From Gemmatimonadota bacterium (lineage in GTDB: Bacteria; Latescibacterota; UBA2968; UBA8231), in assembly GCA_038153405.1 (NCBI GenBank), contig JAYOYH010000010.1, positions 22,751-86,750 of the forward strand: a stretch of DNA of 64,000 nt, in the 5' to 3' direction. Of the stretch, positions 5,019-20,919 are shown piece by piece (position 1 is the stretch's first letter; every line of letters starts with the position of its first letter). The notes under the pieces were generated by a model that did no database searches, had not been told where the DNA came from, and saw nothing but the letters and a program-made list of their open reading frames with translations. Made by a program: the position numbers and the translations under genes.

Positions 5019-5034
5019 GCCCTAGTGCACCGCT

Positions 5035-6705
5035 TCAACGACTTTCCGCATAGCGCGCAAGAGCCTCTTCATTCCACTGTGTCTGGTCTTTATAAGCCAA
5101 GCGCAGCGAGTCGAGATACGCGGCAAATAGCTTGGCCTCTTCTTGCTCTCGCAGCTTAACGCGGATGGGACGCTGCACCTGCTTAAAGGGAATAGCTTCC
5201 TTTAATATGGGTCGATTGAGGCGAAAAACGCTAAAGCGATCTTGGACTTCCAATGGTCCGTGCACAATACCTACGTCTTTTTCGTTGCTGTCGCCCAAAA
5301 ACGTTCGGTACGGCGACTGATACAGCGATGCAATCTCTAACCGGCCGCTGTCGGAAAAGGCATGACCGCCCAACTCCTCCATACCCGGCCGCACGGAAAG
5401 GCGCCCGGCCAGCGACTCCAGCGATTCTCCGCCGCGGGCGAGCTCGACGACCTCCTCCGCTTCGCTCCGAGTCTCGACCAGCACCTCGGTAAGGTGAATA
5501 ACGCCGGGCAGCTTCTTATACGTGTCGAGATATTCCTCGTAATAGGCTTCGACGCGTTCGTCGGCAATTGCCACTTTATCTGCGATCTGATCTAGGCGCA
5601 GCTGATTAATCATAAGTGCTCTGCGGCGCTGCTGGCGGAACGCAACGATATCGCTATCGGCACCTCGGTTTTGTCTGCGCGCCTCTAAGACCATGAGCGA
5701 ATCGGGCAGAATCCACCGCTCGATTTCATCGAATACTGCAGTGCTATCGGGCGGTAGGGCCCCCTTTTTCAGGTCGCGAATTCCGCGCACGGCATCGCCG
5801 ACCAAAATGCGCCCTCCCCGATAGCTAATTAATTCTCGCGCGGCCGATTCCGGAGTTAGCCCCTTGCGAAAAAGCCCGTTGAGCACATCGTGTACGCGCT
5901 CTCGCTCGTAGCGTATATCGCGCAATGTGGCGAGCGAATCGACGACGACTTCACGTCGCTCTGCCCATTTAACTTTGCTCATCCTATTGGCAATATTGTC
6001 GCGAACGGCCGCAAAGCCTTTGCGTCGCTTTTCTATAATCTTTACAATTTCCCAGCCGTCCTTCGTGCGAATAGGCTCGCTAAACTCGCCCTCTTCCAAG
6101 AAGAAGGTGGCCTCGCGCAGTGCAGGAACGACATCTCCCTGCCCAAAGAACGCCCCCAAATTGCCGCCCGTTATGGCATCATCGGCACGCGAATATTCCT
6201 TGGCCACTTCGGAGAAAGGGCGGCCTTTGCGCAGCTCCTCAATAACGACGCGCGCATCTTCTTCGCTCTTTGAGAGAATGTGCGCCGGCCACACCTCCCA
6301 GCCTAAATCAAAGCTTTCATAGGCCTCGCGCAGTTCGGCCTCGTCTATGCGCAGCTGGCGATCCACCAATTCGATAGACACCTTCTGAGCCAAACGCTTG
6401 TTGGTTTCCACATCCAACACATGCTCCAATTCGGGCAGCACCCCGATGCCTTTTTTCGCCGCTTCCAAGAGCATAATTTCTCGGTCGACCAAGTCCTGCG
6501 CATACTGTCGCAATGCACTTACATCTTCTTTTTCGGCACGTAGATGGTTAGGTAAACTGGCGATAAAAGCCGATACTTCGCCGGCATCGATATCAACGTC
6601 TCCGACCTGAACAATACTGGAGTCCGGGACGCCTATCTTTTTTTGATCGGCACAGCCGCCCACAGCCAGCGCGGCAACCAAACCCGCCCATGCGTAACGA
6701 ATCAT
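5035..6705 (-). CDS. PpiC/parvulin-type peptidyl-prolyl cis-trans isomerase lipoprotein (SurA/PpiD-like)
   Basis: 556 aa. Lipobox LAVGGC. The parvulin block is HILSKSEEDARVVIEELRKGRPFSEVAKEYS...GGNLGAFFGQGDVVPALREATFF...DGWEIVKII. A long SurA_N-like N-terminal region precedes it. Confidence 0.75.
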   Translation of the reverse strand: MIRYAWAGLVAALAVGGCADQKKIGVPDSSIVQVGDVDIDAGEVSAFIASLPNHLRAEKEDVSALRQYAQDLVDREIMLLEAAKKGIGVLPELEHVLDVETNKRLAQKVSIELVDRQLRIDEAELREAYESFDLGWEVWPAHILSKSEEDARVVIEELRKGRPFSEVAKEYSRADDAITGGNLGAFFGQGDVVPALREATFFLEEGEFSEPIRTKDGWEIVKIIEKRRKGFAAVRDNIANRMSKVKWAERREVVVDSLATLRDIRYERERVHDVLNGLFRKGLTPESAARELISYRGGRILVGDAVRGIRDLKKGALPPDSTAVFDEIERWILPDSLMVLEARRQNRGADSDIVAFRQQRRRALMINQLRLDQIADKVAIADERVEAYYEEYLDTYKKLPGVIHLTEVLVETRSEAEEVVELARGGESLESLAGRLSVRPGMEELGGHAFSDSGRLEIASLYQSPYRTFLGDSNEKDVGIVHGPLEVQDRFSVFRLNRPILKEAIPFKQVQRPIRVKLREQEEAKLFAAYLDSLRLAYKDQTQWNEEALARYAESR

Positions 6706-6819
6706 CTACTATGTTCTCCTCTGCAATACTTGTAACACAAAGCGACGCGACACCGCCAAAGCGATGCCGCGTCCGAATATGAACAGCTTGAAAACCGTAT
6801 AACTAGCTATTGTGCGCGC

Positions 6820-7584
6820 TCAGGGGCTGGTATTGGCTACTCTGCGCCCGTCGGGATATACCCGCCCAATTTCGCGCTGAAAGAGCATCTCCACGTCGGT
6901 GGTCTCTACCGGGTCGCCTTTGTAGTCAAAGCGCACGACAATATCGTCAATGTGCACCGTCAATAGGTCGACATCGCTAGCCAACGGTTCAAATACGATA
7001 TAGCCCTCGCTCTCCTGGGCAGAAAAAATCTGCTCGTCTTGATACATCGTCCTGCGCAGAATGCCATCGCGTTCCTTCCAGACAATAAACGAATTGCCGG
7101 GTATGCCCGGCGAATCGCCTCCACTGCCGCCACCGGCGTAGCGGCGATAGTAAATGGATAGCTGGTCTCTGGTCAACGCATAGTATTTGCGGCCGTTTGA
7201 CGTCGTGATATACACCTTCTGCGGATCGAGGTAGACCTTGGGATACTCGTAATTGGACACGTTGAGGCGAAAAATCGTCCACCGTTTGGGCGTATCCCCG
7301 GTGTCAAAATACTCCGAGTTGCCAAAGGTATACGGGTTGCGGGACTCGGCCCCGTCGTTGGAATAAGCGCTGAACTGGCGATTGAGTTCTTCGTCAGTCA
7401 TCGGCCGCAGGGTGATGGCCAGGCGCGCCTGGTTATAGGTAACGCTGCCATCGTCGGCAACTTCTTTGTCCTCGCCCTGCTCCGCTTCGCTCAGCGGCTG
7501 CAAATCATCTGCATAGTATCGATATGAACAACCCGTCCATCCGACGGCTGCGGCGAAGAAGAGCAGGTAACAGATTTTCAACAT
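6820..7584 (-). CDS. Hypothetical lipoprotein (254 aa)
   Basis: N-terminus MLKICYLLFFAAAVGWTGC (lipobox). The gene starts 10 nt after the stop of the upstream 917-aa OMP gene, so the two are translationally coupled. It has no recognisable catalytic motif. Confidence 0.55.
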   Translation of the reverse strand: MLKICYLLFFAAAVGWTGCSYRYYADDLQPLSEAEQGEDKEVADDGSVTYNQARLAITLRPMTDEELNRQFSAYSNDGAESRNPYTFGNSEYFDTGDTPKRWTIFRLNVSNYEYPKVYLDPQKVYITTSNGRKYYALTRDQLSIYYRRYAGGGSGGDSPGIPGNSFIVWKERDGILRRTMYQDEQIFSAQESEGYIVFEPLASDVDLLTVHIDDIVVRFDYKGDPVETTDVEMLFQREIGRVYPDGRRVANTSP

Positions 7585-7594
7585 GGCTCTCTCC

Positions 7595-10348
7595 TTATTC
7601 CAGACCAGCGTAAACCGTTACGAACATCGCCGTCTCGGTTCGCGCTTTATCAGCCGATGCACGGTCGATTCGCGCGATGCGGAAACCCGCCTGCGTCCAC
7701 AAATTATACCCTTGGTAGTCGACGTTATTAGTGAACTGCAGCGCGTATACGAGCTCGTTGCGATCGGAGCGCAGCAGGTTGTCCTCGAGTTGTTTTCTAT
7801 ACTGCTCGACGAACAAGTACTCAACGCCGGTCTGCAGCTCTGTGCGAGAGAGGATCGGCACGCGCGCAATCAGCGAAAATAGCTCGCGCAATTCCGTCGT
7901 CGCTACGCGGACCTGAGAATCTTCTCTCTCGGCGGGACGCTGGCGCTGAAACTCGCTCTTCCAGCGCGGCTGGAACTTGACAATGCCGACGTCAAACGTG
8001 TAGTCCAGCTTGTTGAGTATGCCAAGGAACGACGCCGATTCGCGTATATCTTGCTGCTCGACCGGACGCTGATCGTAGTCGATCTGGTTTACTACCTCCC
8101 ACTTTACGCGATTCTTGAACTGCAATCGATCGCTGGTATACTGATAGCCAAAGTAGAAGGTGTTGGCCCACGCATCGCGAAACGGCAGCGGATCGGTGTA
8201 GGGAACGAAAGCGCCACGCGACCCCTCGCGGACGATCCACTCAATCATATCATCGCGAATATCGTCCTGCACGCGGCGCAGGTTATTAAAGACCTGCACG
8301 CGGCCCCGGCGCGAAAAATCGCGATCGTAGGTCAGCATTAGGTAATTGCTGACGTTGGAGCGATCGTCCGCCAGCTGGCGCTCGTCGAGGCGTCCAACGG
8401 TCAGACGGGCCTCGGGACCCAACTGCGTGCCGATATAGGCGTTGTAGCCGCGGCGATCCCGCTTGTAGAGATAGTCCGGCAAATTGTCGTTTTCAAAGCG
8501 ATCGACAATGCCGTTGTTGTTCATATCCACACCGAAGAGAAATTCCGGCCGATCGGACGCATAGCGCAAGAAGGGCTCCTCGTAGTCGGGCATCGTATTT
8601 TCCCGGACATCCGAGTCGTTCTGGTTGAAGTCGTTTACAAAGTCGTTGTTCTCGTCGTAGCCCGGAAAGATACGCGTATCCTGCGAAAAGTTAGAGCGCA
8701 GCCAGTCGGGATTGCGGTCTTGGTCGTCATTGTCGTCGACGAACTCGTATACAAAGCGCGTATTGTCGTCGTAGTTGATATCGGCGGCGTCATTCTGCGT
8801 TCCCGCCAGGTACGCGCTGGTACTGTAGTCGGGATCTACGTTGTAGACTTCGCCAAAGGCGTAGTAGGGATAGGCGCGCTTGTAGACGTTGACGAACCAG
8901 GCGTCGGCCTGATTGTTGAAGGCGCGATGCTGGGTCACATCGCTTTCCGAACGGCGCGGATAGCGGAAGTGCTGGCGGTTGCGGTCCCATTCGCCGGAGA
9001 GATAAAAACCGCCGACATCGCTCACGTCGATGGTCACGCCAAAAATCTCGTTGGCAACCGGCAGGCCGTAGTTGACCCGTACGAACTGCTGGTTCGAACC
9101 GTCCTTGACGTTGCCGTCTGCACGCACGGTGCGCTCGGGGATGCCTTCGGACAGCAGCACCGGCTGGCCGTTTGAGTTGAGCTGGCGGTTTGAGGTGACG
9201 TCGATTCGATAATCATTGGCCAGCAGTAACTGGAACTCTATGCTCTTAATCTGCTCGGGCTGTGGACCGAATGAGTTGCGATATTCCGGCCCCTCGAGGT
9301 CGTAGACCAGGACGATGACCTCGTTGCCGTCGGCAGAGAGAAAACCCTCGCGGCGGAAGCCGCCCTGCACAGACGGATGAAAGTCGAGGATGTTGTTATC
9401 GCCCAAGCGGCGGCGGTTGCTGATCTTGCCGCCGTCGATCGTCGTTATGATCATCTCCTCCTGAAAGTAGGCCGCACCCGCCTGGCCGTCCTCCGGCGAG
9501 TCATCGCTCAGGCGCACCTCAATGCGCGAGACGTCGGCGTTGTTCTGCCCTTCCGTCAGGGTGCCACCAAAGGGATTGCCCTGAAAGGCCTGCCCCTTCG
9601 TTTGTGCGTTAAACGCGCTCAAATAGGTCGCACCGAGCTTTACAAAATCACCGATCTGCACGGTTCCTCGCCCACCGACTAAGTTGGTGTCGTTGGAGCG
9701 CTCGCGCCCACCGCCGGTAGTGTTTCCCGTCGTGCTACCCGTGGCACCCGGTGAAGATGGACGAGAAGCGATAAACGTCGCCTCGTATTTATCCGTAGCC
9801 AAGTCCAACTGGATGCCTGCAAACGTCGGCTTGGAAAAGGTCATCGGCGTCAGCGTTGTGCGGATGCGATCGCCAATGGTCAGCGCGTAGGCATACTGGC
9901 CTTTCTGATCGGAGGCAATGACCACGCCGGAAAACCAGCTGGTGAAGTTCGTAGTCTTGAACAGGTTGCTACCGGCCGTCTGCGGAGCAGAAATACGCCA
10001 GTCGTAAATGAGCTGTCCGCGCGTTATGTAGTTGCCGTACAGATCATAGAAGTAGAACCCTTCCTGCGTCGTGTTCACATACCGTTCATACTTGCGACGG
10101 GCGTAGTTGGTGTAGTCCTGCTGACGCCACTGGTACTCGTTGAAGAGCTCCTGCGGCACATACCACTTCTTCACCGCTGGATCCAACGCGTCAAACAACA
10201 CACCCGAACCGTTCGGCTCATAGAATAGCTCGCCCCCGCGCCGGACGCCCAAACGCGAGCCAAAGTCTTCTTGTGCGAGCGCCGCATTGGCTTCTACTAA
10301 CAGAACAGCAGCTGCTACAAACAGAAAAATACGTTTAGCGTTGTTCAC
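7595..10348 (-). CDS. Large secreted outer-membrane protein of unknown family (917 aa), putative beta-barrel
   Basis: GTG start with signal peptide MNNAKRIFLFVAAAVLLVEANAALA. Alternating Y/F/W-rich amphipathic beta-strand segments run through the sequence. A D/N-rich low-complexity insert is present (DDNDDQDRNPDW...NDFVNDFNQNDSD). It is the third gene of a same-strand operon. Confidence 0.55.
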   Translation of the reverse strand: MNNAKRIFLFVAAAVLLVEANAALAQEDFGSRLGVRRGGELFYEPNGSGVLFDALDPAVKKWYVPQELFNEYQWRQQDYTNYARRKYERYVNTTQEGFYFYDLYGNYITRGQLIYDWRISAPQTAGSNLFKTTNFTSWFSGVVIASDQKGQYAYALTIGDRIRTTLTPMTFSKPTFAGIQLDLATDKYEATFIASRPSSPGATGSTTGNTTGGGRERSNDTNLVGGRGTVQIGDFVKLGATYLSAFNAQTKGQAFQGNPFGGTLTEGQNNADVSRIEVRLSDDSPEDGQAGAAYFQEEMIITTIDGGKISNRRRLGDNNILDFHPSVQGGFRREGFLSADGNEVIVLVYDLEGPEYRNSFGPQPEQIKSIEFQLLLANDYRIDVTSNRQLNSNGQPVLLSEGIPERTVRADGNVKDGSNQQFVRVNYGLPVANEIFGVTIDVSDVGGFYLSGEWDRNRQHFRYPRRSESDVTQHRAFNNQADAWFVNVYKRAYPYYAFGEVYNVDPDYSTSAYLAGTQNDAADINYDDNTRFVYEFVDDNDDQDRNPDWLRSNFSQDTRIFPGYDENNDFVNDFNQNDSDVRENTMPDYEEPFLRYASDRPEFLFGVDMNNNGIVDRFENDNLPDYLYKRDRRGYNAYIGTQLGPEARLTVGRLDERQLADDRSNVSNYLMLTYDRDFSRRGRVQVFNNLRRVQDDIRDDMIEWIVREGSRGAFVPYTDPLPFRDAWANTFYFGYQYTSDRLQFKNRVKWEVVNQIDYDQRPVEQQDIRESASFLGILNKLDYTFDVGIVKFQPRWKSEFQRQRPAEREDSQVRVATTELRELFSLIARVPILSRTELQTGVEYLFVEQYRKQLEDNLLRSDRNELVYALQFTNNVDYQGYNLWTQAGFRIARIDRASADKARTETAMFVTVYAGLE

Positions 10349-10409
10349 GAAAACCCTCCCTTATTCACCAGCATTTGTCTGACAATCTATTCCAAATGCT
10401 CGAAGTACG

Positions 10410-13400
10410 TCAATATGCCACATTGACAATGCGCATCAGCTCGCTGTCGCCCTGATCGGCTTCAACGATGATGCGGCAAATATACATACCCGGAGGCACC
10501 AACGCCCCCGACGCGTCGAGCCCGTTCCAGCGGAACTCCTGCGCACCAACCATCCCGGCCATACCGCTTCCCTGTCCGCGCCCCACCAAGCGCCCACTAA
10601 GGTCGAATATCTCCACACCTAGCGGACGCTCTTCCAACACTTTGAGCAGGGCGAAACGCACGACGAGTTCGTCGTTTATGCCATCGCCGTTCGGCGTAAA
10701 TACAGCCGCCATATCAACGTCTTGAATGAGCGCATCACTCAGCGCCATTAGGCTGACGCGAGCCGTTGAGGATTCGACCAGTTCGGTAGCATCCTTTGAC
10801 GACGTATCAACGCGCTGAAAAACGCCCTCTTCGCCGTTGGACGAACGGACGAAACTGCCAAACTCAATGCCTTCGCGGAAGCTCTGGGATTCAAACTGCA
10901 CCTCGACAATGGCATGGCGTCCTCCCAACAAGTTTCCATTCACCGATTCGGGGAAGCGCACCCATAGCGAGTCGCTGCGCGTAGCCATAACCATGAGCGC
11001 CTCGCCCGCCTCGTTGCGAAAGGTGCCGTCGGCATCCCGACCATAAAACCGCGTGAAATCGGTCTGTACGGCAGTCGTCAGGGAGGCCGTAGGATCGATG
11101 AGAGAGGCCTGTTCAGATACGGATACCGTTCCGACCCGCACGCCTTTCAACTCGGCAGCGAGTGGAGTGACGATAAGAACTTCATTGAAGCCATCGCGCA
11201 CCGTCACGTCAGCCGGATCCGGTGCAGCCGCTCGAATAAAGTACGAGAAGCTCTGCTGCGAAAGGGGATCAACGCCCGTAGGCGCCACGTAATCGACGGG
11301 AAGCGAAAGGAGCTCCGTCACGGGACGGCCCTTACCCTCGTCCGTAAGCAGCGCTAGTTCGCCCGCTAGTTCTAACGACAGGGGCGGCGCCAAATCGACG
11401 CGCAGTTCGCGAACGCGGGCCGTCTTGAACGGTTCTTCGGAGGAAATATTAACGCGAATCTGCAAAAACTTGCGCGGGTTAGGCGAGGTTATCGTCGCCT
11501 CGTTGCGCCCGTTGGTCGGCGCATACGACTCGCTCCACTCGCTCCAGCCGACAAAGGCCAGTTCGCCTTCGCTGTCGTAGGAAGAGCGCGGCTCGCGGCG
11601 GAGTTTCTTTCCGTCTTCGTCTACCAATCCATCGCCGTCGTTGTCGATCAGGTCGATGGGATCTTCATCCGTCACGCCATCGCCGTCGTCGTCGACGCGA
11701 CTCTCGTGCCGTTTGTTGTCTGGCAAGGTCTGCCAGATATTCCATGCGGTCCACTCCAGCACCAGCGCATCGTAGACTTCCTTTGCAACCTCCTGCCGCT
11801 CTTGGGCTCCGGCAATTTCGACCACTTCGTAGTAGGTGAAGTTGGTATCGGTTTGATCGGACGTGCGCGTTTGCACCTGCAGGCGCACGTCGGGATGGTT
11901 CTCCAACGGCTCAATCCGCTCGACGGTTTGCCCGGTAACCGGGTCGGTGTCGCGAATAATCACATCGCCTCCCCAGGCAATCTGCGGCAGCGTTTTGCGA
12001 ATAAACTCCCCGCGCGCATCCGTCAGGGAGATCGGCGGCGAATAGGCCCAAACGCTAACGGGATACCCCTCCCCATAGAGTTGGATCTCGCCGAGGGTTG
12101 CCAGCGAACCATAGCGTCCCGACTGCTGCCCGGTCACGTCGATATCGCGCACCTGCAAAAAGCGGATTTTGCGCGGGGAAAACGTCTCGCGGAATATGCG
12201 CACGACTTGGTCGTGATTGTCCACGTGCTCGGCAGAAATAATGTTGTCCCACTTAAGCCCCTCTTCCAACTGGGGAAAATCGTCGCGCTGTTGCATGCTG
12301 AGCGGCTTGAGCAGCGTGCCGTCTGACACCAAGATATCCGGGCCTAGGAAAGCGCCTAAATGGCTCTGGTTGATGCGCTTGTTAACCACGGAGACGTTAT
12401 CCACCCAGAATACGGCACCCAAATCGTACCAGGCCGTTCCCTTAAGATAGATCGGAGACCACGTATTGGCCTGCCATTCGGAGTCGTAGAGCCCATCCGT
12501 GGCCAACTCGGGGGCTCCAAGGCCACCATTTTCATAGGAGGCGCCACCGCGCTTTTCCGGCTGCAGGGCGTAATTATCGCCCTTGGCCCACACCTGCACT
12601 TCGGAAATGCGCGGCACTTCACGGCTGTAATAGAGTATGGGACCGCGCTTGTCCTCCGACAGGGCTTCAAACTTAGCGCGAGCATTCAGGCCGTTTTCGT
12701 CGTCCTGCAGCTCCACGAGCAGGCCGCCCGCCGTCAGGCGCTGAAAGACCAGTGCACCTCTCTGTTCCGAGGGAAGTGCCTCGTACACCACCCGGCCCTC
12801 TTCCCCAGCCCCGAGGAACGCATCGCGCCACAAATCGGAATCGGTGACCTTAATGCGGATATACTGCAGAAACGTGCCGTCTATATCGGGCAGTCCATCC
12901 AAATCCCAGTCGGCGCGATCTAGCGGGCGGAGGGGAAAGGTCATCTGCACGTAGCGCCCGTCCGTGCCCGGCGTGGGGCGGAGCACGAGTTCGTTAACCT
13001 CTTCTCCTCCACCGCCCGAACACGAGGTGCCTCCGGCATAGCCTGCCGACTCATCGCGCACGCATTGAGCGATTTTTCCGGCGGCAAAGTTGGTCGCAAC
13101 CTGTCCGACGAGCGAGAAGTTCAGGCTGTTACCCAGTGGAAAGGGAAAGCGCTCGCCCATGGACGCAAAAACGGCAAATGATTTCAGTGGTTCACCGAGA
13201 AATTCTTCTCCTACCTGGCCAGCCGGAAAAATAACCGTGACGCTGTCGACGTAAACCAAACGCCCTAGGTCGATTTCCAATTCCCACTTGCGCAACCCAT
13301 CGACGGAAAACTCGTGCGTTTCGTCGAGGCGACGCTCGTAGTTGGAAGCAACGGAGGGTTCCCAGTAGGTCTCGAGATTGTCGTCAAGGATAGCTAAGGA

Positions 13401-13751
13401 CCGGGTGTTATTGGATAAACTGCTGGCCCCACCGCTGACCACATCGCCGCCAGCGCGCACCAAATCCTTATAGCTAAAGTTGGCTGCCGTAGGGCCGATG
13501 TTGATATTGCGCCGATAAAAGACCGGACGCATCCCCTCCGCATCGACCTGAAAGATGTCGGCGTCGGTAATGGGCACGTTAAGCGAACCGACGAGGTCGT
13601 TTTGATAGCTCCAATTGAGCCAATGCGAAGCCCTATCGACTCGAATCGAGTTGCCAAATAGCCTGTAGGCGTCACCGACCTGAGACAGTGCAGGGACTGC
13701 CAACAGGACTCCTAGCAACACAGCGTGGCACACAGTCATCCGATTTTTCAT
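10410..13751 (-). CDS. T9SS cargo protein (1113 aa) with two N-terminal discoidin (F5/8 type C)-like domains and a C-terminal T9SS sorting domain
   Basis: Signal peptide MKNRMTVCHAVLLGVLLAVPALSQ. ILDDNLETYWEP...ELEIDLGRLVYVDSVTVIF and ATDGLYDSEWQ...YDLGAVFWVDNVSVV match the discoidin pattern. An acidic DDDGDGVTDEDPIDLIDNDGDGLVDEDG calcium-binding-like stretch is present. The C-terminus FTPNGDGINDELVVRF....VNVAY has the gliding-motility/CHU_C-type T9SS CTD signature. Confidence 0.75.
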   Translation of the reverse strand: MKNRMTVCHAVLLGVLLAVPALSQVGDAYRLFGNSIRVDRASHWLNWSYQNDLVGSLNVPITDADIFQVDAEGMRPVFYRRNINIGPTAANFSYKDLVRAGGDVVSGGASSLSNNTRSLAILDDNLETYWEPSVASNYERRLDETHEFSVDGLRKWELEIDLGRLVYVDSVTVIFPAGQVGEEFLGEPLKSFAVFASMGERFPFPLGNSLNFSLVGQVATNFAAGKIAQCVRDESAGYAGGTSCSGGGGEEVNELVLRPTPGTDGRYVQMTFPLRPLDRADWDLDGLPDIDGTFLQYIRIKVTDSDLWRDAFLGAGEEGRVVYEALPSEQRGALVFQRLTAGGLLVELQDDENGLNARAKFEALSEDKRGPILYYSREVPRISEVQVWAKGDNYALQPEKRGGASYENGGLGAPELATDGLYDSEWQANTWSPIYLKGTAWYDLGAVFWVDNVSVVNKRINQSHLGAFLGPDILVSDGTLLKPLSMQQRDDFPQLEEGLKWDNIISAEHVDNHDQVVRIFRETFSPRKIRFLQVRDIDVTGQQSGRYGSLATLGEIQLYGEGYPVSVWAYSPPISLTDARGEFIRKTLPQIAWGGDVIIRDTDPVTGQTVERIEPLENHPDVRLQVQTRTSDQTDTNFTYYEVVEIAGAQERQEVAKEVYDALVLEWTAWNIWQTLPDNKRHESRVDDDGDGVTDEDPIDLIDNDGDGLVDEDGKKLRREPRSSYDSEGELAFVGWSEWSESYAPTNGRNEATITSPNPRKFLQIRVNISSEEPFKTARVRELRVDLAPPLSLELAGELALLTDEGKGRPVTELLSLPVDYVAPTGVDPLSQQSFSYFIRAAAPDPADVTVRDGFNEVLIVTPLAAELKGVRVGTVSVSEQASLIDPTASLTTAVQTDFTRFYGRDADGTFRNEAGEALMVMATRSDSLWVRFPESVNGNLLGGRHAIVEVQFESQSFREGIEFGSFVRSSNGEEGVFQRVDTSSKDATELVESSTARVSLMALSDALIQDVDMAAVFTPNGDGINDELVVRFALLKVLEERPLGVEIFDLSGRLVGRGQGSGMAGMVGAQEFRWNGLDASGALVPPGMYICRIIVEADQGDSELMRIVNVAY

Positions 13752-13808
13752 ACTCTATCCTCTTTGAGGAGCATTTCGCGCAGATCGTCGCAATGCGTTT
13801 CCCGCAGC

Positions 13809-16259
13809 TTAATAGGCGACGGAAATGAGTTTCGTTCTCGCCTCGCCCGCATCGTCCGCTTCCGTCGACAGCCGCAATATGTATAGTCCTGGCGGCACCA
13901 GGCTGCCCATGTCGTCCCTTCCATCCCACTGTTCTGAATAGCCACCTGAGTTCAGCAAGCGCTCGATGAGGCGCAGGCGGTTCCCATTCAGATCGTATAC
14001 CGCAAGCAGGACCGCGCGGGGCTCTAACAAGCGCTGGACGTCAAAGCGGACCTCTAACAGATCGTTGACCCCGTCGCCGTTCGGTGTAAAAGGGTTGGGA
14101 GTCGTTTCGAAGTTCGCAACTAAATTGCTCCCCTGCGCCGAGATATCGGCGATAACCGCAAGCGAGTTGCGGTCGGAAAGCTGCTCTGTAGCATCAAAAT
14201 CGATGACATCGCTGCCCTCGACCGGCTGCGGCAGAAAGAGAGCCAAGGTGTCGGCAGCTGCGCCCAACGTGAGGATTCCGTTATTGGTAAAGCGGCGATC
14301 GAAGCTCGATGCCAGCGTATCCAAGAACACGTTGGCCGCGAAGTTGGTGCGGAAGTCAATCACGCGCGCGCGGAAGTTGACTTTCACAACCGCCTCCCGA
14401 TCCAGCCCATCGTCACCGGGGGCAATCGTCGGAAATCCGATCACAAATTGCTCGTCATCAACGAATAGCGCGCTGAACTGATCATCATCGAAATCGGGGT
14501 TTTCGCTGGCAGACAACATGCGCACATCGCCGGCACCCATATCGATTGACACAGATTGAATGTTTTCGACGCGGGCAGGCGTGAAGACCTGCAGCCGATT
14601 GAAACCGTTGTTATTCGCTCCCAGGGACGCTCTAATCGCAATGGCGAAGGTCGTGTCTATACCAGCCTTGACGTCGACCGCGGGAGCGATCTCGCCGACC
14701 ACGGCGTCGGTGATCTGCGGCGCCGAGTATTCAAAGCGCAGGTTGCGCACAATCGTCGCCGACTCCGATGATAAACTTCTGAACTCAACATCGATCTGAA
14801 TAAAGGGCCTACCACTCGGCGAGTTGATGAGCTGGCCATTGGTCACCTGCTGCACGCCGCTCCAGTACTCGAGATCCGGCTCAATTTTCCTGCGCAAGTT
14901 GCCGGGCAGCGCCTGATATTCGGCGCGCGTCAGACGAACGGATTCGCGCTCGTCGGGCAGCAGCGCGCTGAATATTTCGCGAACTTCTAGGTTGAACTGT
15001 GGGTCGTTCAAGTCGATCTGCTCGCCGCGCGTCTTCGATCCGGCGCGACGGTCCACTACAATAGCGTTTTCCGGCTTCCACTCGACCTGACGCTCGAATT
15101 CGTTGACGCGAAACAGCACATCCGGCTCGGCATTAACACCCGTCTGAATGCGCACGATGGCACTCGACTTGGTCGGGTCACCGACCTTATCCTCTTCCCA
15201 AAAAATGCGACCAAGGGTCGACGGCGGCAGCGGCAAGGCGATAGAGCGATAGGTCGCCTGCGGCACAAAGCCGTCGGCAAAGAATTCCATCTCGCCCAAA
15301 TCATAGTCGAGTTCGGTCTGAAAGTCCATGCGCGCGTAGCGCATTTTGGCGGGCGGATCGAACGCCACCGCCACTGTGTCCTCGACGTTAACGGGCGCAC
15401 TCTGCTCGGGAACAAAAGTGGGAAACGTCGGGGCAATTTTGGTGAATATGGGAAAGGCCAACTGACCGACGGTCGGATCGTCCAAGCTCAAGCCGGCAAT
15501 GACTTTTTCCGTGCCGGCAATACCCCGATAGAACGTGTAGGCAGAAATGCGAACGGGCGCCTCCGGACTGGGATATACCCGCATGAGGCGAATGGGAAAA
15601 AAGCGTCCGAGGTCGACATACAGCGTCCAGACCTGCTTGACGTCCTGCCCAACGCGGTCGATGCGCTCAAAGTGGGTAAGCGGATCGCCGTCAAATACGC
15701 GGCCCAATCCCTCTTGGAGCCGCTGTAAGGTCAGCGCACGCTCAAAAATACCCAGTGTCGTGAGATTGAGACCCTTATTGTATTTGTCTCCTCCCGGCGG
15801 GCGCGGAAACGACTCCGCTACGTTAATCAGCGCAGCGACCGTATCCACGCCGGCTAGGCGCAGCATCTGCACGTCTTCCAGCGACCGAGGAAAGTCACCC
15901 CAGCGCGAAATGAGCACATCACCAGCGGCCACGGAGCGATCGCCGAGGGTGGCATCCAGCTGCGCTACGACTTCGGATCGGGCAACGTGTTGCGAAAATT
16001 CAAATAGAATGGAGTCAGCACCAGCGCTGCCCTCCTCAACCTGCGGGACAGGCACCATTTGCACCGGCTCGATCGGCGCAATCCCGTCGGGAACGCGTAG
16101 GAGATCGACGGCTTCGAGATAGCGCTGCTCGGAGATAGGTCCCTGTTTGGCATCAACCCAGGAGATATCTTGCGGAATGGAAAAGATCTTGAGTTCGGCA
16201 GGGCTTTCGCCCACCAGGCCCGCCAGCACTGCTACGGCGATACGCTTTGACCATCTCAT
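13809..16259 (-). CDS. T9SS cargo protein (about 816 aa) with C-terminal T9SS sorting domain; paralogous over its C-terminal half to the 1113-aa neighbour
   Basis: C-terminus FTPNGDGVNDLLEVRF...LISVAY. The preferred start is MRWSKRIAVAVLAGLVG at 16259 (signal-like, GGAGAG upstream) rather than the acidic MNEESDPESQG start at 16292. The region FIQIDVEFRSLSSESATIVRNLRF...IRA aligns with QIRVNISSEEPFKTARVRELRV...IRA of the downstream protein. Confidence 0.7.
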   Translation of the reverse strand: MRWSKRIAVAVLAGLVGESPAELKIFSIPQDISWVDAKQGPISEQRYLEAVDLLRVPDGIAPIEPVQMVPVPQVEEGSAGADSILFEFSQHVARSEVVAQLDATLGDRSVAAGDVLISRWGDFPRSLEDVQMLRLAGVDTVAALINVAESFPRPPGGDKYNKGLNLTTLGIFERALTLQRLQEGLGRVFDGDPLTHFERIDRVGQDVKQVWTLYVDLGRFFPIRLMRVYPSPEAPVRISAYTFYRGIAGTEKVIAGLSLDDPTVGQLAFPIFTKIAPTFPTFVPEQSAPVNVEDTVAVAFDPPAKMRYARMDFQTELDYDLGEMEFFADGFVPQATYRSIALPLPPSTLGRIFWEEDKVGDPTKSSAIVRIQTGVNAEPDVLFRVNEFERQVEWKPENAIVVDRRAGSKTRGEQIDLNDPQFNLEVREIFSALLPDERESVRLTRAEYQALPGNLRRKIEPDLEYWSGVQQVTNGQLINSPSGRPFIQIDVEFRSLSSESATIVRNLRFEYSAPQITDAVVGEIAPAVDVKAGIDTTFAIAIRASLGANNNGFNRLQVFTPARVENIQSVSIDMGAGDVRMLSASENPDFDDDQFSALFVDDEQFVIGFPTIAPGDDGLDREAVVKVNFRARVIDFRTNFAANVFLDTLASSFDRRFTNNGILTLGAAADTLALFLPQPVEGSDVIDFDATEQLSDRNSLAVIADISAQGSNLVANFETTPNPFTPNGDGVNDLLEVRFDVQRLLEPRAVLLAVYDLNGNRLRLIERLLNSGGYSEQWDGRDDMGSLVPPGLYILRLSTEADDAGEARTKLISVAY

Positions 16260-16349
16260 TCCTTGGCTCTCCGGGTCAGATTCCTCATTCAATACGCGAT
16301 AAAGGGCGAGATACTAAACGGCAGGAAGGTTAGAGCACGCGTTTGTCCT

Positions 16350-16393
16350 GAAAAACAGCGTTGAAGAGAGGGGGTTGCCCCCCTCTCTTCAAC
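16350..16393 (-). terminator. Intrinsic terminator downstream of the 330-aa secreted-protein gene
   Basis: The 14-15 bp G/C-rich perfect stem TTGAAGAGAGGGGG / CCCCCTCTCTTCAA has a 4-nt loop. On the minus strand it is followed by a T5 run (plus-strand AAAAA at 16351-16355). Confidence 0.7.
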
Positions 16394-16423
16394 GGGATAT
16401 CACAGCGCATTGCAGCGCTTAAA

Positions 16424-17329
16424 TTACTCGACCGAGGCCTTGATACGACCCCAAGAATCGCTCTCAACAGCCGTGCCACCACCACCGGCACCGACCAAGC
16501 GACCATCGACGAAACGCTCAGCGTAACGCCAGGTAGCGGCCTGACCGGACAGGGTGTGGAACGCGCGGTAGTTGGAGGGCTCGATGTCGAAGTCAGGCAC
16601 CGAAACCTGGAAGCCAATGATGCCACCGTCGACCAGGTTCGTGGCCTGGCTATCATCGGGGCTGTTCCAGATCAGGTCGTCAAACGGCGTGACGTAGAAC
16701 TCGAAGATCGAGGTCGTCGGACCCTCGCCAACCGAGCCACCGCCGCCATCGGCATAGGGCAGCGCGTTGACCCACTCGGCACCGGCGCCCTGATAACCGA
16801 CGTGGCGGCCATCGGGGGTGTCGGCAATAGCGACATACTGCTGAGCGGTGCGGTTGTTGTTCAACAGCTTCTCGTCGTCGGTCCAGTTCTCGTCAGCCGA
16901 ACCCGTGTAGTCACCACCGGTGTGGTCGCCGTCGAGCATGAACTCGATAGCGTCGTGACGCCAGAGCTGACCGAGGTCGCCACCAGCATACTCGTTGATG
17001 TACACGTTATCAACGCGCTCCATGGCCATGTAGATGGTGCTGGAGTTGCCGTTCCAGCCTACCCAAATGCGGTAGTCGAGGTCGGCCGGATCATACTGGG
17101 CACCTTCGCCCACGGTCGGATCCTGGTAGAAATCAGTCGTGACGAGCGGAGCATCGCCAACGACGTCTTCCCAGTCAGCAACGCTGATATCGCGAATATC
17201 GATATCAGACAAATCCGAATCGGGAATTTCGTAGATCAGGTAAACAGATTCGCCTATGTGGGCGCTTGCGGTACCGCTCATGCCGCCAACGAGGCCGGCA
17301 ACGATCAGAGAGAGTAGAGACTTTCTCAT
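16424..17329 (-). CDS. Secreted hypothetical protein (about 301 aa)
   Basis: The start is placed at the internal Met (MRKSLLSLIVAGLVGGMSGTASA, signal peptide) preceded by AAGGAG at 9-nt spacing. The ORF tool's longer 330-aa start would sit inside a terminator hairpin. The sequence is D/G/W-rich with no catalytic motif. Confidence 0.55.
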   Translation of the reverse strand: MRKSLLSLIVAGLVGGMSGTASAHIGESVYLIYEIPDSDLSDIDIRDISVADWEDVVGDAPLVTTDFYQDPTVGEGAQYDPADLDYRIWVGWNGNSSTIYMAMERVDNVYINEYAGGDLGQLWRHDAIEFMLDGDHTGGDYTGSADENWTDDEKLLNNNRTAQQYVAIADTPDGRHVGYQGAGAEWVNALPYADGGGGSVGEGPTTSIFEFYVTPFDDLIWNSPDDSQATNLVDGGIIGFQVSVPDFDIEPSNYRAFHTLSGQAATWRYAERFVDGRLVGAGGGGTAVESDSWGRIKASVE

Positions 17330-17416
17330 TTGTTTGGACTCCTTCCAAAAGATCTTTTGAATCACACTGTACTCATACGTAAAGAAGGCTTCTGCGGCAT
17401 CGATATGACACCGCAT

Positions 17417-17445
17417 GAAAACTGAAAATACCGAAGCATTTTCAG
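17417..17445 (-). terminator. Terminator/attenuator-like hairpin
   Basis: CTGAAAAT-ACCGAAGC-ATTTTCAG (8-bp stem) is followed on the minus strand by TTTTCA. It lies between a sigma70-like promoter and the start of the 16424..17329 gene. Confidence 0.4.
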
Positions 17446-17566
17446 GAAAATTTCAGTTCGCCATCACCTCCTTTCGCCGTGGAATGCGCAGAAAACAAAA
17501 TGCGACCATCGCCCTTCTCTAAAGAGAGAACGCGATGGGAATGCGTTAGATAAAAAATTTCACCTT

Positions 17567-17595
17567 ATGATATGTTAAAGTACAGCAGGTGTCAA
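17567..17595 (-). promoter_or_regulatory. Sigma70-like promoter on the minus strand
   Basis: The minus strand reads TTGACA - 17 nt - TATCAT (-35 at 17595..17590, -10 at 17572..17567). It sits in an AT-rich intergenic stretch. Confidence 0.35.
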
Positions 17596-17676
17596 GGCAA
17601 AACTGCCCTCGCCACACCCAGCCCTAAGGTAGTAGAAAATAATACGTTATGATTCGAATGGGGCAAATCAGTGCCT

Positions 17677-18534
17677 CTATTTATCTTCTTCCTGCTCATC
17701 CTGAGCCCGAAAGCGTATTTGTTTTACGTGGTGCATGCCAATGGAAAACGGGCCAGAAGGGGTCTTTCCCGTCAAGGCCGCATTGACGCGGTCGTAATAG
17801 CTCCTGTCGGTTTCCCCCGACAGGCGCACGGTGCTGGCATCGACAGTGCCCATCACCGTTCGCCCGTTCCAGTAGATGGCCGTGATGGGGCGAAACTCCT
17901 CGGCGGAGCCGCTGTCGTCGAAATCTATTTTGTCGACTTTGTCCAGGGGGATAAAACGCTTGTTGCGACCGCGAAAAAAGTCGAGGCGCAGCTTGCCGCG
18001 AAAGCGCAGGTCTTCCACTTCGAAGCGCTTGCCCTCCAACGTGATGACGGTAGCCTTTAATACGGGCTCCTCGACGACCTCCTCGCCTTCGGGGTGCTGC
18101 AGGATGATTTCCTGCACATCGCTGACCAAGATGAAGAACGGCCCCAGCGATGTGACGCCCGTAAAGCGCCGGCCGCTGCTGCCTCCTCCAACTGCGTCCT
18201 GGTGCGGAGCTGCCCCACCACCGGTCAACATGAGGCCCCTCTCTTTCTTTCCAGACCGCATCGACAGAGATACGGCCTGTTCCTCGTCTCTTCCCTCCCC
18301 TTCAAAGCGGATTCGATCGATCAGTACTAATTGCAGCATTCGCCGCTGATCGCCGATATAGACTTCGATTTCTTGACGTCCCTGATACGCAAAGCGCTCT
18401 ACCTTGTGCTGGTTACCATAGCGATCAATCACGATCGCCTGCGCGGCCCCTCCTTCGATAACGCCGCACAGAGTGAGCAATAGACCGAGCAACACTATCA
18501 GGTGACTACGAGCCTGTTCACGTGTAGATTTCAT
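17677..18534 (-). CDS. Secreted hypothetical protein (285 aa)
   Basis: Signal peptide MKSTREQARSHLIVLLGLLLTLCGVIEGGAAQA. No known motif. It is the last gene of a long same-strand operon. Confidence 0.5.
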   Translation of the reverse strand: MKSTREQARSHLIVLLGLLLTLCGVIEGGAAQAIVIDRYGNQHKVERFAYQGRQEIEVYIGDQRRMLQLVLIDRIRFEGEGRDEEQAVSLSMRSGKKERGLMLTGGGAAPHQDAVGGGSSGRRFTGVTSLGPFFILVSDVQEIILQHPEGEEVVEEPVLKATVITLEGKRFEVEDLRFRGKLRLDFFRGRNKRFIPLDKVDKIDFDDSGSAEEFRPITAIYWNGRTVMGTVDASTVRLSGETDRSYYDRVNAALTGKTPSGPFSIGMHHVKQIRFRAQDEQEEDK

Positions 18535-18558
18535 ACAGATCGCTCCGCGTTGAGTCTA

Positions 18559-19248: not shown

Positions 19249-19319
19249 TGTGCCTACCCTCCTCTGGCATTTGAGCCAATAGCCCGTTAAGCGGCCAGAC
19301 CGCAATGCCTTCATTGCTC

Positions 19320-20912: not shown

Positions 20913-20919
20913 GAAGGCG

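Follow-up and report, generated by a model that had tools for sequence, protein, structure and literature searches.

Gene content and organization

The locus occupies the minus strand of the window, the whole 64,000-nt stretch of DNA that was analysed, and centers on five genes that encode two large proteins with signal peptides (A and B), a predicted outer-membrane β-barrel protein, a lipoprotein, and a peptidyl-prolyl isomerase (PPIase) (Table 1). Open reading frame calling reproduces all five together with the intergenic gaps of 57, 61, 10, and 114 nt reported in the preliminary description. The start of protein A is most likely ATG 16259, because its orthologues are 816–829 aa long and a Shine-Dalgarno-like AAGGA precedes this codon; read from TTG 16292, the frame spans 13809-16292 and encodes 827 aa. 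Both A and B had been termed giant, but at 816 and 1113 aa they are large only.

The module extends beyond these five genes. Upstream, it includes a gene for a CBM9-like secreted protein and, downstream, it probably takes in a gene for an SGNH/GDSL hydrolase that starts 16 nt past the PPIase gene. The single five-gene operon proposed initially is doubtful, since the 114 nt that separate the lipoprotein and PPIase genes contain a conserved terminator-like hairpin. A second hairpin follows the CBM9-like gene, and stems of −24 to −35 kcal/mol with differing sequences occupy the equivalent place in orthologous loci. The module thus consists of three predicted transcription units, divided at the conserved hairpins.

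Gene order is identical in every orthologous locus and recurs with modifications across dozens of paralogous loci; the arrangement is therefore far beyond chance, and the genes constitute a functional unit that is conserved, as had been supposed. The surroundings include a PMT_2-type glycosyltransferase gene; at some paralogous loci, PMT_2+TPR proteins are also encoded downstream of the barrel.

Table 1. Coordinates of the module and its neighbors in the window
Feature	Position	Strand	Remarks
FG-GAP/UnbV_ASPIC protein	1264..2997	+	Convergent with the module; near it in 36/83 loci; also in distant lineages
SGNH/GDSL hydrolase with TPR, 674 aa	2994..5018	-	Neighbor conserved in orthologous loci
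SurA/PrsA-like parvulin PPIase, lipoprotein, 556 aa	5035..6705	-	Pfam Rotamase, E 3e-14
Terminator-like hairpin, 13-bp stem	6744..6773	-	Between lipoprotein and PPIase genes; structure, not sequence, conserved in orthologous loci
Lipoprotein, 254 aa	6820..7584	-	10 nt past the barrel gene; predicted Ig-like β-sandwich
Giant outer-membrane β-barrel protein (predicted), 917 aa	7595..10348	-	GTG start; signal peptide; AF2 model; unassigned family
Tagged surface protein B (predicted), 1113 aa	10410..13751	-	Signal peptide, discoidin/CBM32-like regions, acidic DxDGDG loops, common C-terminal module, tag
C-terminal tag domain of protein B, last 100 aa	10413..10712	-	FTPNGDGIND...VNVAY; isolated domain: CHU_C 29.2 bits, FlgD_ig 23.1 bits
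Tagged surface protein A (predicted), 816 aa (827 aa from TTG 16292)	13809..16259	-	Signal peptide, weak CBM32/fucolectin-like region, common C-terminal module, tag
C-terminal tag domain of protein A, last 100 aa	13812..14111	-	FTPNGDGVND...ISVAY; Pfam CHU_C 30.2 bits (cut-off 27), FlgD_ig 19.5 bits
Terminator-like hairpin, 16-bp stem, then CTGTTTTT	16359..16394	-	3′ of the CBM9-like gene
CBM9-like secreted protein, 301 aa from ATG 17329	16424..17329	-	Conserved module member; C-terminal tag TAVESDSWGRIKASVE
Exported protein, 285 aa, family unassigned	17677..18534	-	Upstream neighbor conserved in orthologous loci only
Lipoprotein, ~229 aa	18559..19248	-	Starts MITGWL...; lipobox LVGC; upstream neighbor conserved in orthologous loci only
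PMT_2-type (GT39/GT83-like) membrane glycosyltransferase	19320..20912	-	Conserved neighbor

Tagged proteins and their C-terminal domain

The similarity of proteins A and B to CBM32, discoidin, and fucolectin domains is weak, and Pfam F5_F8_type_C is present in relatives of protein B. The C-terminal paralogy of the two, originally placed at about 300 residues, covers about 350–375 residues, with residues 739–1113 of B aligning to 477–827 of A at 27% identity (E 1e-22). Both proteins end, as first noticed, in FTPNGDG(I/V)ND...(V/I)(N/S)VAY.

The designation of these endings as type-B T9SS sorting domains holds in part. Pfam CHU_C recognizes the domain of protein A, yet full-length protein B reaches only 24.1 bits (cut-off 27), NCBIfam TIGR04131, the type-B model, returns 18.2 (A) and 15.8 bits (B) against a cut-off of 35, and FlgD_ig fits equally well. 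The tag is a special Ig-like domain of the CHU_C/FlgD-Ig type, defined by the motif FTPNGDGxND and by last residues of the form hydrophobic-(A/V)-Tyr. It is strictly C-terminal in 217/217 cases, nearly all with the final Tyr. It is a distinct Tyr-terminated subtype that falls below the NCBIfam type-B cut-off.

The barrel protein and its accessory proteins

The AF2 model of the 917-aa protein, of moderate confidence, is a barrel of ~25 long strands with an inserted β domain at residues 275–390. No Pfam or NCBIfam model matches the protein even at E up to 10, and no match is found in a search of PDB sequences. Fold comparison yields generic matches, to SlpA, MtrB, and LptD (TM ≤0.35), and aligns 415 residues with SprA. 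The family is nonetheless large, with more than 1000 cluster representatives and with 942 and 1012 relatives in the searches, and is best conserved in its N-terminal ~100 aa. It is a new family that belongs to no known one; the absence of an assignable family for the barrel and the lipoprotein, noted from the outset, persists in Pfam, NCBIfam, and PDB sequence searches. A genome can encode five or more copies of the barrel, and a chromosome can carry up to five paralogous cassettes, each of which retains both cargo classes.

Cys19 of the 254-aa protein is invariant and lies in a lipobox; the model of this protein, of poor confidence, is an Ig-like β-sandwich. Most paralogous cassettes do not encode it. 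The PPIase also has a lipobox (AVGGC), kept in orthologues, and its gene is present in 67/83 loci. Pfam SurA_N_3 matches at E 0.016, under the cut-off, while among the 60 of 67 PDB sequence matches listed (E up to 0.01), all are PrsA, SurA, or other parvulin-type chains. The association of the SprA translocon with a PPIase, mentioned in the preliminary description, is reported for Fjoh_4997 (PMC9143113).

The order of barrel, lipoprotein, and parvulin PPIase had also been read as an echo of LptD–LptE–SurA, which would make the locus a lipopolysaccharide insertion unit. This candidate is rejected, being effectively refuted by sequence, fold, copy number, and neighbors. The barrel has no LptD/OstA family match at E up to 10, and its TM-score to LptD (0.18–0.21) does not exceed those to BtuB, porins, and ushers. 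The family reaches five or more divergent copies per genome, and the lipoprotein, which is missing from most paralogous cassettes, has a model that matches Ig-like sandwiches, with LptE not among the best 60 structure matches listed. The conserved partners of the barrel are instead the tagged genes.

The CBM9-like protein is assigned by a profile match to the CBM9 of a Thermotoga xylanase in the PDB (1i82, E 6e-5); Pfam CBM9_1 is matched by 3/16 members of its family. Relatives occur in 62/83 loci, and nine more divergent ones are detected via the tag. Its gene has a strong Shine-Dalgarno sequence (GGAAGGAG).

Genomic linkage of tag and barrel

The DNA comes from an uncultured member of Latescibacterota, not of Rhodothermota. 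Relatives of the module are likewise found in Latescibacterota, not in Rhodothermota or Bacteroidota, the groups named for comparison in the preliminary description; the cassette is typical of this phylum and occurs also in related FCB lineages. Across 83 loci from Latescibacterota species genomes, the gene immediately upstream of the barrel encodes a tagged protein in about 78 of the 81 untruncated loci by gene order, and in 64 of 83 under a strict distance filter. The median gap is 25 nt, and each locus has 1–4 tagged genes. The upstream partners are discoidin/CBM32-like and bear a CHU_C/FlgD-Ig domain that is strictly C-terminal and ends in Tyr.

The linkage is specific and holds in both directions. 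When long metagenome loci are sampled from the tag side, the barrel is found in 13/18 with a Tyr-terminated tag vs 0/27 with other CHU_C/FlgD-like domains (Fisher p 1e-7); the remaining 5/18 have no barrel nearby. Tagged-protein genes are thus conserved neighbors of the barrel gene and not merely adjacent to it. A PorP/SprF-like small barrel is encoded directly downstream in 9/42 ordinary CHU_C loci vs 2/22 of the Tyr type; therefore, the giant barrel stands where the cognate membrane partner would be. None of the 83 Latescibacterota loci has a PorP/V/Q-like gene, and a T9SS in Latescibacterota is not mentioned in the literature searched. An Ignavibacteria-labelled relative encodes, in this order, a tagged protein, a PorV/PorQ-family-like 310-aa barrel (NF033709, E 2.8e-15), the giant barrel, and a TPR protein, which ties the family to a T9SS-type context. 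A PorP/V/Q-like barrel and the giant barrel occur together in three loci (L084, L094, and L099).

Proposed function and alternatives

The best explanation, to which we assign a probability of about 0.5, is that the locus represents a modular, hitherto undescribed cassette for surface display at the outer membrane, repeated in the genomes that carry it, in which the barrel serves the tagged proteins as cognate membrane partner. The signal peptides of the two large proteins would direct export through Sec. The lectin-like (discoidin/CBM32-type) regions would then be displayed by way of the common ~350-aa C-terminal module, whose terminal tag may dock physically onto the co-encoded 917-aa barrel for retention at the cell surface. 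The logic would be that of Bacteroidota, in which PorP/SprF barrels collect and anchor cognate type-B CTD cargo that is genetically linked to them and needs long C-terminal regions (PMC9143113; PMC12618676). The gene of the 254-aa lipoprotein is presumably coupled in translation to that of the barrel, and its product may be a stoichiometric barrel subunit; the CBM9-like protein, which ends in a SWGRIK tag of its own, may be an additional surface component. In the periplasm, the SurA/PrsA-like lipoprotein PPIase may help assemble the very large barrel, the cargo, or both. The route across the outer membrane would be either a T9SS or the barrel itself. The output is likely a sugar-binding or adhesive surface complex, in which case the paralogous cassettes of a genome may provide different specificities. 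Several observations sit uneasily with a cognate-partner role: 25 or more strands are far beyond what an anchor needs, PorP/SprF having 14; in L084, L094, and L099, where a PorP/V/Q-like barrel is also present, the giant barrel must have a different or an extra task; 5/18 long tag-bearing loci have no barrel nearby; and the tag does not reach the NCBIfam type-B model. The moderate and poor confidence of the barrel and lipoprotein models likewise weighs against it.

It is possible, though unlikely, that the barrel is itself the outer-membrane translocon for the co-encoded proteins, independent of SprA/Sov, with the tag as secretion signal and the PPIase holding or folding periplasmic cargo. Its size class is that of protein-conducting or protein-enclosing barrels (SlpA, MtrB, LptD, and SprA, the last with the 415 aligned residues), and each cassette pairs one barrel with 1–4 cargo genes and has its own chaperone. 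The absence of PorP/V/Q-like genes from all 83 loci and of any T9SS in Latescibacterota from the literature searched is also consistent with such autonomy. However, the Latescibacterota cassettes show no evident energy source or periplasmic machinery, and a CHU_C-family tag is a T9SS signal in studied organisms. Moreover, the L084, L094, and L099 cassettes contain a T9SS-type shuttle-like barrel, type-A-like CTD proteins are also encoded in cassette-bearing lineages, and some tagged genes are orphans.

Two further readings assign the barrel to other tasks. Nutrient capture resembling SusC/SusD, with lectin-like and CBM9-like proteins binding glycans, the giant barrel as import channel, and paralogues for different substrates, is improbable. 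Multiplication per genome, as in PULs, the uniformly carbohydrate-binding-like accessory proteins (CBM32/discoidin and CBM9), the SGNH/GDSL hydrolase gene downstream, and ExbB-ExbD-ExbD directly upstream of the L084/L085 cassette would all suit uptake, and the conservation peak in the N-terminal roughly 100 aa is reminiscent of a TonB-dependent transporter plug. Yet Plug and TonB_dep_Rec signals are missing from the barrel, whereas the window also encodes a genuine TonB-dependent receptor that scores strongly; no glycoside hydrolases or inner-membrane sugar transporters are seen in the cassettes examined, and known uptake loci have neither a dedicated PPIase nor C-terminal sorting tags. Deinococcus SlpA ties the surface layer to the envelope, and a comparable scaffold, with an abundant structural barrel carrying a layer of tagged proteins, is quite improbable here. 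Weak Pfam SlpA_C matches at the same profile positions in three distant family members hint at it, as does the CBM9-like gene, whose strong promoter-like site, strong Shine-Dalgarno sequence, and own terminator are often features of genes for abundant proteins. Against it, TM-scores are only 0.28–0.30, an SLH domain or coiled-coil stalk is absent, family profiles do not match SlpA sequences in the PDB, and many divergent copies per genome fit poorly with a single structural scaffold.

Comparison with known systems

The surface-display cassette proposed here resembles T9SS cargo-plus-anchor pairs but is not a member of them. As with type-B cargo (SprB–SprF and PG1035–PorP–PorE), the proteins are Sec-exported and have a strictly C-terminal CHU_C-type Ig-like domain with the motif FTPNGDGxND, surface location being predicted here; the cargo gene adjoins a dedicated outer-membrane barrel gene, many cargo/partner pairs occur per genome, and adhesin-like cargo proteins have a long C-terminal region in common (PMC9143113, PMC12618676). 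In contrast to type-B cargo, the Tyr-terminated tag fails the NCBIfam type-B cut-off, and the cassette further encodes a lipoprotein, a tagged CBM9-like protein, and a PPIase of its own. PorP/SprF barrels are 14-stranded, FadL-like, and about 300 aa long, whereas the partner here has 917 aa, 25 or more predicted strands, and no family, and it coexists with PorV/Q/P-like barrels in some lineages. Unlike in Bacteroidota, a T9SS is undocumented for Latescibacterota in the literature searched.

SprA/Sov exceeds 2000 residues, has 36 strands, and is normally single-copy, in contrast to the multi-copy 917-aa barrel, which has no SprA_N or other sequence signal of that translocon. SprA/Sov is accompanied by PorV, Plug, and a PPIase (Fjoh_4997), while the PPIase of the window is a parvulin-type lipoprotein. 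In size class and best fold matches, the barrel approaches the 26–30-stranded LptD–LptE, MtrB–MtrA–MtrC, and SlpA, all of which accommodate a second protein inside the barrel or on it, and tight coupling between the genes for barrel and lipoprotein is a further point in common. However, there is no sequence relationship to these, TM-scores are at most 0.35, the lipoprotein is not LptE-like, cytochromes and an SLH domain are lacking, and the family is multi-copy per genome. SusC/SusD loci are likewise barrel-centered cassettes, multiplied per genome in an FCB-group bacterium, with a lipoprotein and predicted surface proteins that have carbohydrate-binding-like domains. Unlike in those loci, the barrel is not a TonB-dependent transporter and the cassettes have no SusD-like protein or glycoside hydrolases; instead, the accessory proteins bear C-terminal sorting tags and are joined by a PPIase.

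Gene Organization and Transcription Units

The module comprises five minus-strand ORFs that encode two large tagged proteins (A and B), a giant β-barrel protein, a lipoprotein, and a peptidyl-prolyl isomerase (PPIase). They lie where the preliminary description had placed them, and the short gaps that it reported between them (57, 61, 10, and 114 nt) are confirmed. Read from the TTG at 16292, tagged protein A has 827 residues; on the basis of the lengths of its orthologues (816–829 aa) and of an AAGGA that precedes the ATG at 16259, the latter is probably its start. The remaining starts have good Shine–Dalgarno sequences. The barrel protein has a signal peptide, and the predicted signal-peptidase sites of the barrel (between ALA and QE) and of tagged protein B (between ALS and QV) leave an N-terminal Gln, which recalls the Q-rule reportedly followed by exported proteins of Bacteroidetes.

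The five genes had also been taken for a single operon. This proposal is doubtful, since two strong terminator-like hairpins, each with a GC-rich stem and a T-rich tail, divide the region, and their stems are kept in orthologous loci though the sequences differ. Three units are likely: one with only the CBM9-like gene; one with tagged proteins A and B, the barrel, and the lipoprotein; and one with the PPIase and a GDSL/TPR gene. An Rfam scan of positions 2500–21500 matched no family, and thus the hairpins represent no known RNA family. Farther along the window, the encoded FapA protein is unusually long among FapA-like proteins.

Positions of the cassette genes and of other features in the window
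Feature	Position	Strand	Match
Tagged protein A	13809-16292	-	
Tagged protein B, 1113 aa	10410-13751	-	
Giant barrel, 917 aa	7595-10348	-	
Lipoprotein, 254 aa	6820-7584	-	
PPIase, 556 aa	5035-6705	-	
CBM9-like protein, 301 aa	16424-17329	-	PDB 1i82, E 6e-5
Hairpin after the CBM9-like gene	16394-16359	-	
Hairpin between lipoprotein and PPIase genes (114-nt gap)	6773-6744	-	
SWGRIK-type tag, CBM9-like protein	16424-16471	-	
SWGRIK-type tag, 160-aa ORF	22814-22861	-	
PMT_2-type membrane glycosyltransferase	19320-20912	-	
FapA_N + FapA protein, 983 aa	28650-31601	+	E 5e-70, 1e-53
ParA, ParB, then 471-aa FGE-sulfatase + PKD-like protein	48057-51110	+	
FGE-sulfatase protein	49695-51110	+	

The Tyr-Terminated Tag

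Tagged proteins A and B carry signal peptides, and their last 100 residues form the tag domain. Both finish in FTPNGDG(I/V)ND…VAY, and both are paralogous toward their C termini (27% identity over the last 350–375 residues, E 1e-22), as described earlier. Their assignment to the type-B sorting domain of type IX secretion (T9SS) stands in part. The Pfam CHU_C model (PF13585; cut-off, 27 bits) is passed by the 827-aa protein A (30.2 bits) and, as an isolated domain only, by the 1113-aa protein B (29.2 bits, compared with 24.1 bits at full length), but NCBIfam TIGR04131 is failed by both (18.2 and 15.8 bits; cut-off, 35). Pfam CHU_C and FlgD_ig both match 42 of 42 diverse related tags. In the PDB, the tag profile retrieves FlgD Ig domains, the Fn-like domains of C5a peptidase, and the PorU CTD (6za2, E 1.4e-3), while NCBI names one tagged-protein orthologue a [quoted passage not shown]. 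Across the 83 Latescibacterota loci that carry the cassette (i.e., the barrel, its tagged proteins, and accessory genes), all 217 tag domain matches stop within 5 residues of the C terminus, with hydrophobic-(A/V)-Tyr as the last residues of nearly all. Since the tags match both CHU_C and FlgD_ig and fall short of the NCBIfam type-B model, they make up a Tyr-terminated subtype of their own within the CHU_C/FlgD-Ig fold. Proteins A and B also give weak CBM32, discoidin, and fucolectin matches, and Pfam F5_F8_type_C is present in their relatives.

The Giant Barrel Family

The barrel had been described as lacking an assignable family, and this holds: neither Pfam nor NCBIfam gives a match at E values as high as 10, and a 27-sequence profile matches no PDB sequence. 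The AlphaFold2 model built on the 27-sequence alignment (pLDDT 67, pTM 0.68), of moderate confidence, is a very large β-barrel of ~25 strands of at least 9 residues, with a confidently modelled β domain inserted at residues 275–390. The top Foldseek ranks are SlpA, MtrB, and LptD, at TM-scores ≤0.35; given these generic matches, the modelled barrel would fall into the 26–30-stranded size class that encloses or carries a partner, and into none of those families. The most conserved stretches, residues 31–120 and 541–630 (mean column identity 0.74–0.86), are exactly the parts that AlphaFold2 fails to model (pLDDT 34–50). The second is Asp/Asn-rich, with DxDxDG-like loops of the calcium-binding type. 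These stretches could form a plug or a fold dependent on a partner or on calcium.

Relatives of the barrel amount to 942 clusters in a word-indexed search, 1012 representatives at 50% identity in an exhaustive search, and more than 575 matches in species genomes; every named member is a “hypothetical protein”. Among the best 80 of 575 matches, up to five loci occur on one chromosome (e.g., OZ220690.1). Tandem arrays of 2–4 paralogous barrel genes per cassette are found in Latescibacterota loci L058, L059, L063, L066, L071, and L072 and in the distant loci L086 and L087.

The nearest relatives are 74–97% identical, and those with names come from MAGs, and many from complete chromosomes, labelled Candidatus Latescibacterota, with some labelled Gemmatimonadota or Handelsmanbacteria. 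Neither Rhodothermota nor Bacteroidota is the source of the window. MAGs with near-identical cassettes (L006, L009, L016, L017, L026, and L045) are labelled Gemmatimonadota, Handelsmanbacteria, and even Gemmatimonas phototrophica, and complete chromosomes with the same cassette genes bear the Latescibacterota label; the labels of these cassette-bearing MAGs are probably inconsistent.

The order of barrel, lipoprotein, and PPIase had also suggested an LptD/LptE/SurA unit, which is now rejected. The LptD/OstA domains (N-terminal β-jellyroll and LptD barrel) are absent, LptD is expected as a single essential copy rather than at up to five loci per chromosome, and the lipoprotein shows neither the fold nor the family of LptE, with no LptE among the 60 best matches listed for its low-confidence model. 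The barrel is not a PorP/SprF or PorV/PorQ protein, having 917 residues and ~25 long strands compared with ~300–400 residues and 14 strands, and TIGR03519, NF033709, and PF11751 do not match it. It likewise lacks the length (>2000 aa), 36-stranded barrel, and SprA_N domain of SprA/Sov; the Plug and 22-stranded TonB_dep_Rec domains of TonB-dependent transporters; and the POTRA domains of Omp85/TpsB or the plug and N- and C-terminal domains of ushers. DUF5916, in which a CBM9 domain is fused to a barrel, was rejected as the ancestor of the CBM9-like protein and the giant barrel; the barrel profile aligns with the DUF5916 protein of L002 at an hhalign probability of 0.2.

Accessory Proteins

The lipoprotein has a lipobox with an invariant Cys19. 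The PPIase proves SurA-like in its parvulin domain (Pfam Rotamase, E 3e-14 at residues 147–224), with SurA and PrsA parvulin domains retrieved from the PDB at E 1e-12 to 4e-15, but the SurA models remain below cut-off (SurA_N_3, E 0.016 and 15.5 bits against 27.2; NCBIfam SurA, 34.7 bits against 394). A paralogue of this PPIase has two parvulin matches. On the basis of its conserved lipobox, the PPIase is predicted to be membrane-anchored like PrsA.

Pfam CBM9_1 is found in 3 of 16 members of the CBM9-like family, whose C terminus is a strongly conserved TAVExxSWGRIKASF followed by 1–4 residues and the stop codon. This SWGRIK-type tag occurs on 67 ORFs in the 83 Latescibacterota loci (L001–L083), and a window ORF of 160 residues that is unrelated to the CBM9-like protein bears the same tag (…STWGKIKELFH). 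No family model matches it, and it has the look of a second, phylum-wide signal for sorting or docking.

Conservation of the Cassette

The neighborhood was compared from both ends, starting with the barrel. ORFs of the 83 loci were called in six frames and labelled by phmmer/hmmsearch with the window proteins. In the orthologous loci (L005–L026), gene order is identical to that of the window: a PMT_2 glycosyltransferase, a 229-aa lipoprotein, a 285-aa protein, the CBM9-like protein, A (~826 aa), B (~1111 aa), barrel, lipoprotein, PPIase, and a GDSL/TPR protein, with FG-GAP/ASPIC and TPR genes convergent with the block. In paralogous loci, where barrels are 45–60% identical to that of the window, the core is retained but shuffled and consists of a CBM9-like protein of ~300 aa, one or two barrels, the PPIase, and 1–4 tagged proteins (A type, ~600–700 aa; B type, ~850–930 aa).

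Judged by gene order, about 78 of the 81 loci uncut by a contig end have a tagged gene directly upstream of the barrel. Under a strict distance filter the figure is 64 of 83 loci (median gap, 25 nt), an undercount that arises where ORF starts are over-extended and run into the gene upstream; the gene-order count is the better one. The PPIase gene is present in 67 of the 83 loci and the CBM9-like gene in 62, or 71 with members found by their tag. The tagged genes are therefore conserved neighbors of the barrel and not merely adjacent to it, which bears out the earlier view of a linked unit.

PMT_2-type membrane glycosyltransferases, some TPR-fused, are conserved in the vicinity of cassettes in the window and elsewhere (e.g., L003 12681–14852). 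Given these neighbors, components of the cassette might be glycosylated.

Starting from the tag gives the same linkage. PNGDG[IVL]ND was sought in metagenomes, and of the 80 loci retrieved, 26 carry the Tyr-terminated tag in full; 15 of these 26 contain the barrel, as do 13 of the 18 that span at least 12 kb. In the 54 loci with other CHU_C/FlgD-like domains, the barrel is never found (0/54, including 0/27 long ones; Fisher p 1e-9 for all loci and 1e-7 for long loci). Small barrels were sought by jackhmmer, seeded with a 310-aa PorV/PorQ-family-like protein. A PorP/SprF-like small barrel, identified by the NCBIfam/Pfam matches of one member and by jackhmmer linkage, lies directly downstream of 9/42 ordinary CHU_C genes versus 2/22 Tyr-type genes. 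The former figure reflects the known type-B pairing and acts as a positive control. When the small PorP/V/Q-like barrels were searched as a profile against the PDB, only spurious matches to designed proteins came up. From the contrasting barrel linkage of the two kinds of tag, the position that a cognate membrane partner would have in the genome is filled, for the Tyr-type tag, by the giant barrel.

Type IX Secretion Context

The 64-kb window contains none of the T9SS core (SprA/Sov, PorV, GldK/L/M/N) or other T9SS components. Relatives of PorV/Q/P-like barrels were not seen in the window or in the 83 Latescibacterota loci, and a crude regex test for PorV-like N-terminal motifs found none in these loci. 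The FGE-sulfatase protein of the window was considered as a GldK-like lipoprotein and rejected, with no match to GldK or GldJ models. T9SS or FlgD-type tags in Latescibacterota were not found in the literature searched. Other FCB phyla are listed as possible T9SS hosts (PMC11285876).

Distant relatives of the cassette differ in their surroundings. A PorP/SprF-like small barrel stands beside the cargo gene in L084, L094, and L099. In L084/L085, from an Ignavibacteria-labelled MAG, the order is ExbB, ExbD, ExbD, a tagged discoidin protein, a 310-aa barrel, the giant barrel (1007 aa), a 1045-aa TPR protein, and two DUF4159 proteins. The 310-aa barrel matches the NCBIfam PorV/PorQ family (E 2.8e-15), PorQ (1.8e-8), and PorP/SprF (1e-3), all below cut-offs, and the TPR protein has a sub-threshold PorW/SprE match. 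In L086 and L087, discoidin-plus-tag genes adjoin 3–4 tandem barrel paralogues, together with genes for a protein with the window-lipoprotein domain and for FG-GAP/ASPIC, TPR, and DUF4159 proteins; type-A-like tails ending in …LLK are found on separate proteins. On the basis of the gene content of L084–L087, the barrel family sits in a T9SS-type context outside Latescibacterota.

The ExbB-ExbD-ExbD motor operon (L084 5579–7294; L085 960–2675) stops 67 nt upstream of the cassette. This gene arrangement hints, with some uncertainty, that the barrel may be energized in the Ignavibacteria-labelled MAG; a TonB-dependent receptor gene is nearby too. The window-lipoprotein domain recurs at L084 17622–19187 and L086 954–2195, once fused to DUF4159. 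DUF4159 genes lie near barrel genes in three distant loci, and in the literature searched DUF4159 is mentioned only in the 2015 Pfam database paper.

Proposed Function and Relation to Type-B Cargo

The best-supported reading, with a probability of about 0.5, is that the cassette is a modular surface-display unit. Lectin-like proteins would be addressed by their C-terminal Ig-like tag to the dedicated giant barrel, and the unit would be completed by a lipoprotein coupled to the barrel and a SurA/PrsA-like chaperone specific to the cassette.

Other roles for the barrel appear less probable. With its size modelled in the partner-enclosing range and a tagged gene as its usual neighbor, the barrel could itself be the translocon, an unlikely alternative that, if true, would make the cassette a new secretion route. 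Somewhat less likely still is an uptake channel that the lectins would supply with substrate. A SlpA-like scaffold is improbable: SlpA is the best fold match, yet at a TM-score of only 0.28, and the SLH, coiled-coil stalk, and SlpA_C features of the Deinococcus-Thermus protein are lacking. The window barrel matches neither SLH nor SlpA_C models, SlpA_C matches in three distant family members are below cut-off (E 3e-4 to 2.5e-3), and two barrel-family profiles found no SlpA chain in the PDB, which argues against homology at the sequence level.

A bolder and unlikely reading is that the barrel and Tyr tag form an unrecognized export-and-display pathway of Latescibacterota and neighboring FCB lineages, in which SprA-independent, self-sufficient cargo-plus-translocon cassettes would have arisen from, or in parallel to, the type-B branch.

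In sediments and waters, Latescibacterota are regarded as important degraders of polysaccharides, and the cassette points to the main surface apparatus of this widespread uncultured phylum. Studies of co-variation and complex prediction can also draw on its more than 1000 natural cargo/partner pairs, and at least three new protein families are defined, i.e., the barrel, the domain of the lipoprotein, and the SWGRIK-tagged CBM9-like protein.

In the type-B systems of Bacteroidota, cargo is anchored by a PorP/SprF barrel that binds its uncleaved CTD region, and the genes of the two are linked (PMC9143113, PMC12618676). The cassette would work in a similar way. With a partner barrel of an unassigned family, tag scores short of the curated type-B model, and a T9SS core that is only putative, the cassette is not a T9SS type-B member as defined. 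Both systems place a tagged cargo gene beside the gene of a dedicated outer-membrane partner, which in the cassette is a predicted one. In contrast to type-B pairs, the partner barrel of the cassette is far larger and of a different, unassigned family, its tag scores below the cut-off of the curated type-B model, and the cassette adds a lipoprotein and a chaperone of its own as well as a C-terminal tag of a second kind.
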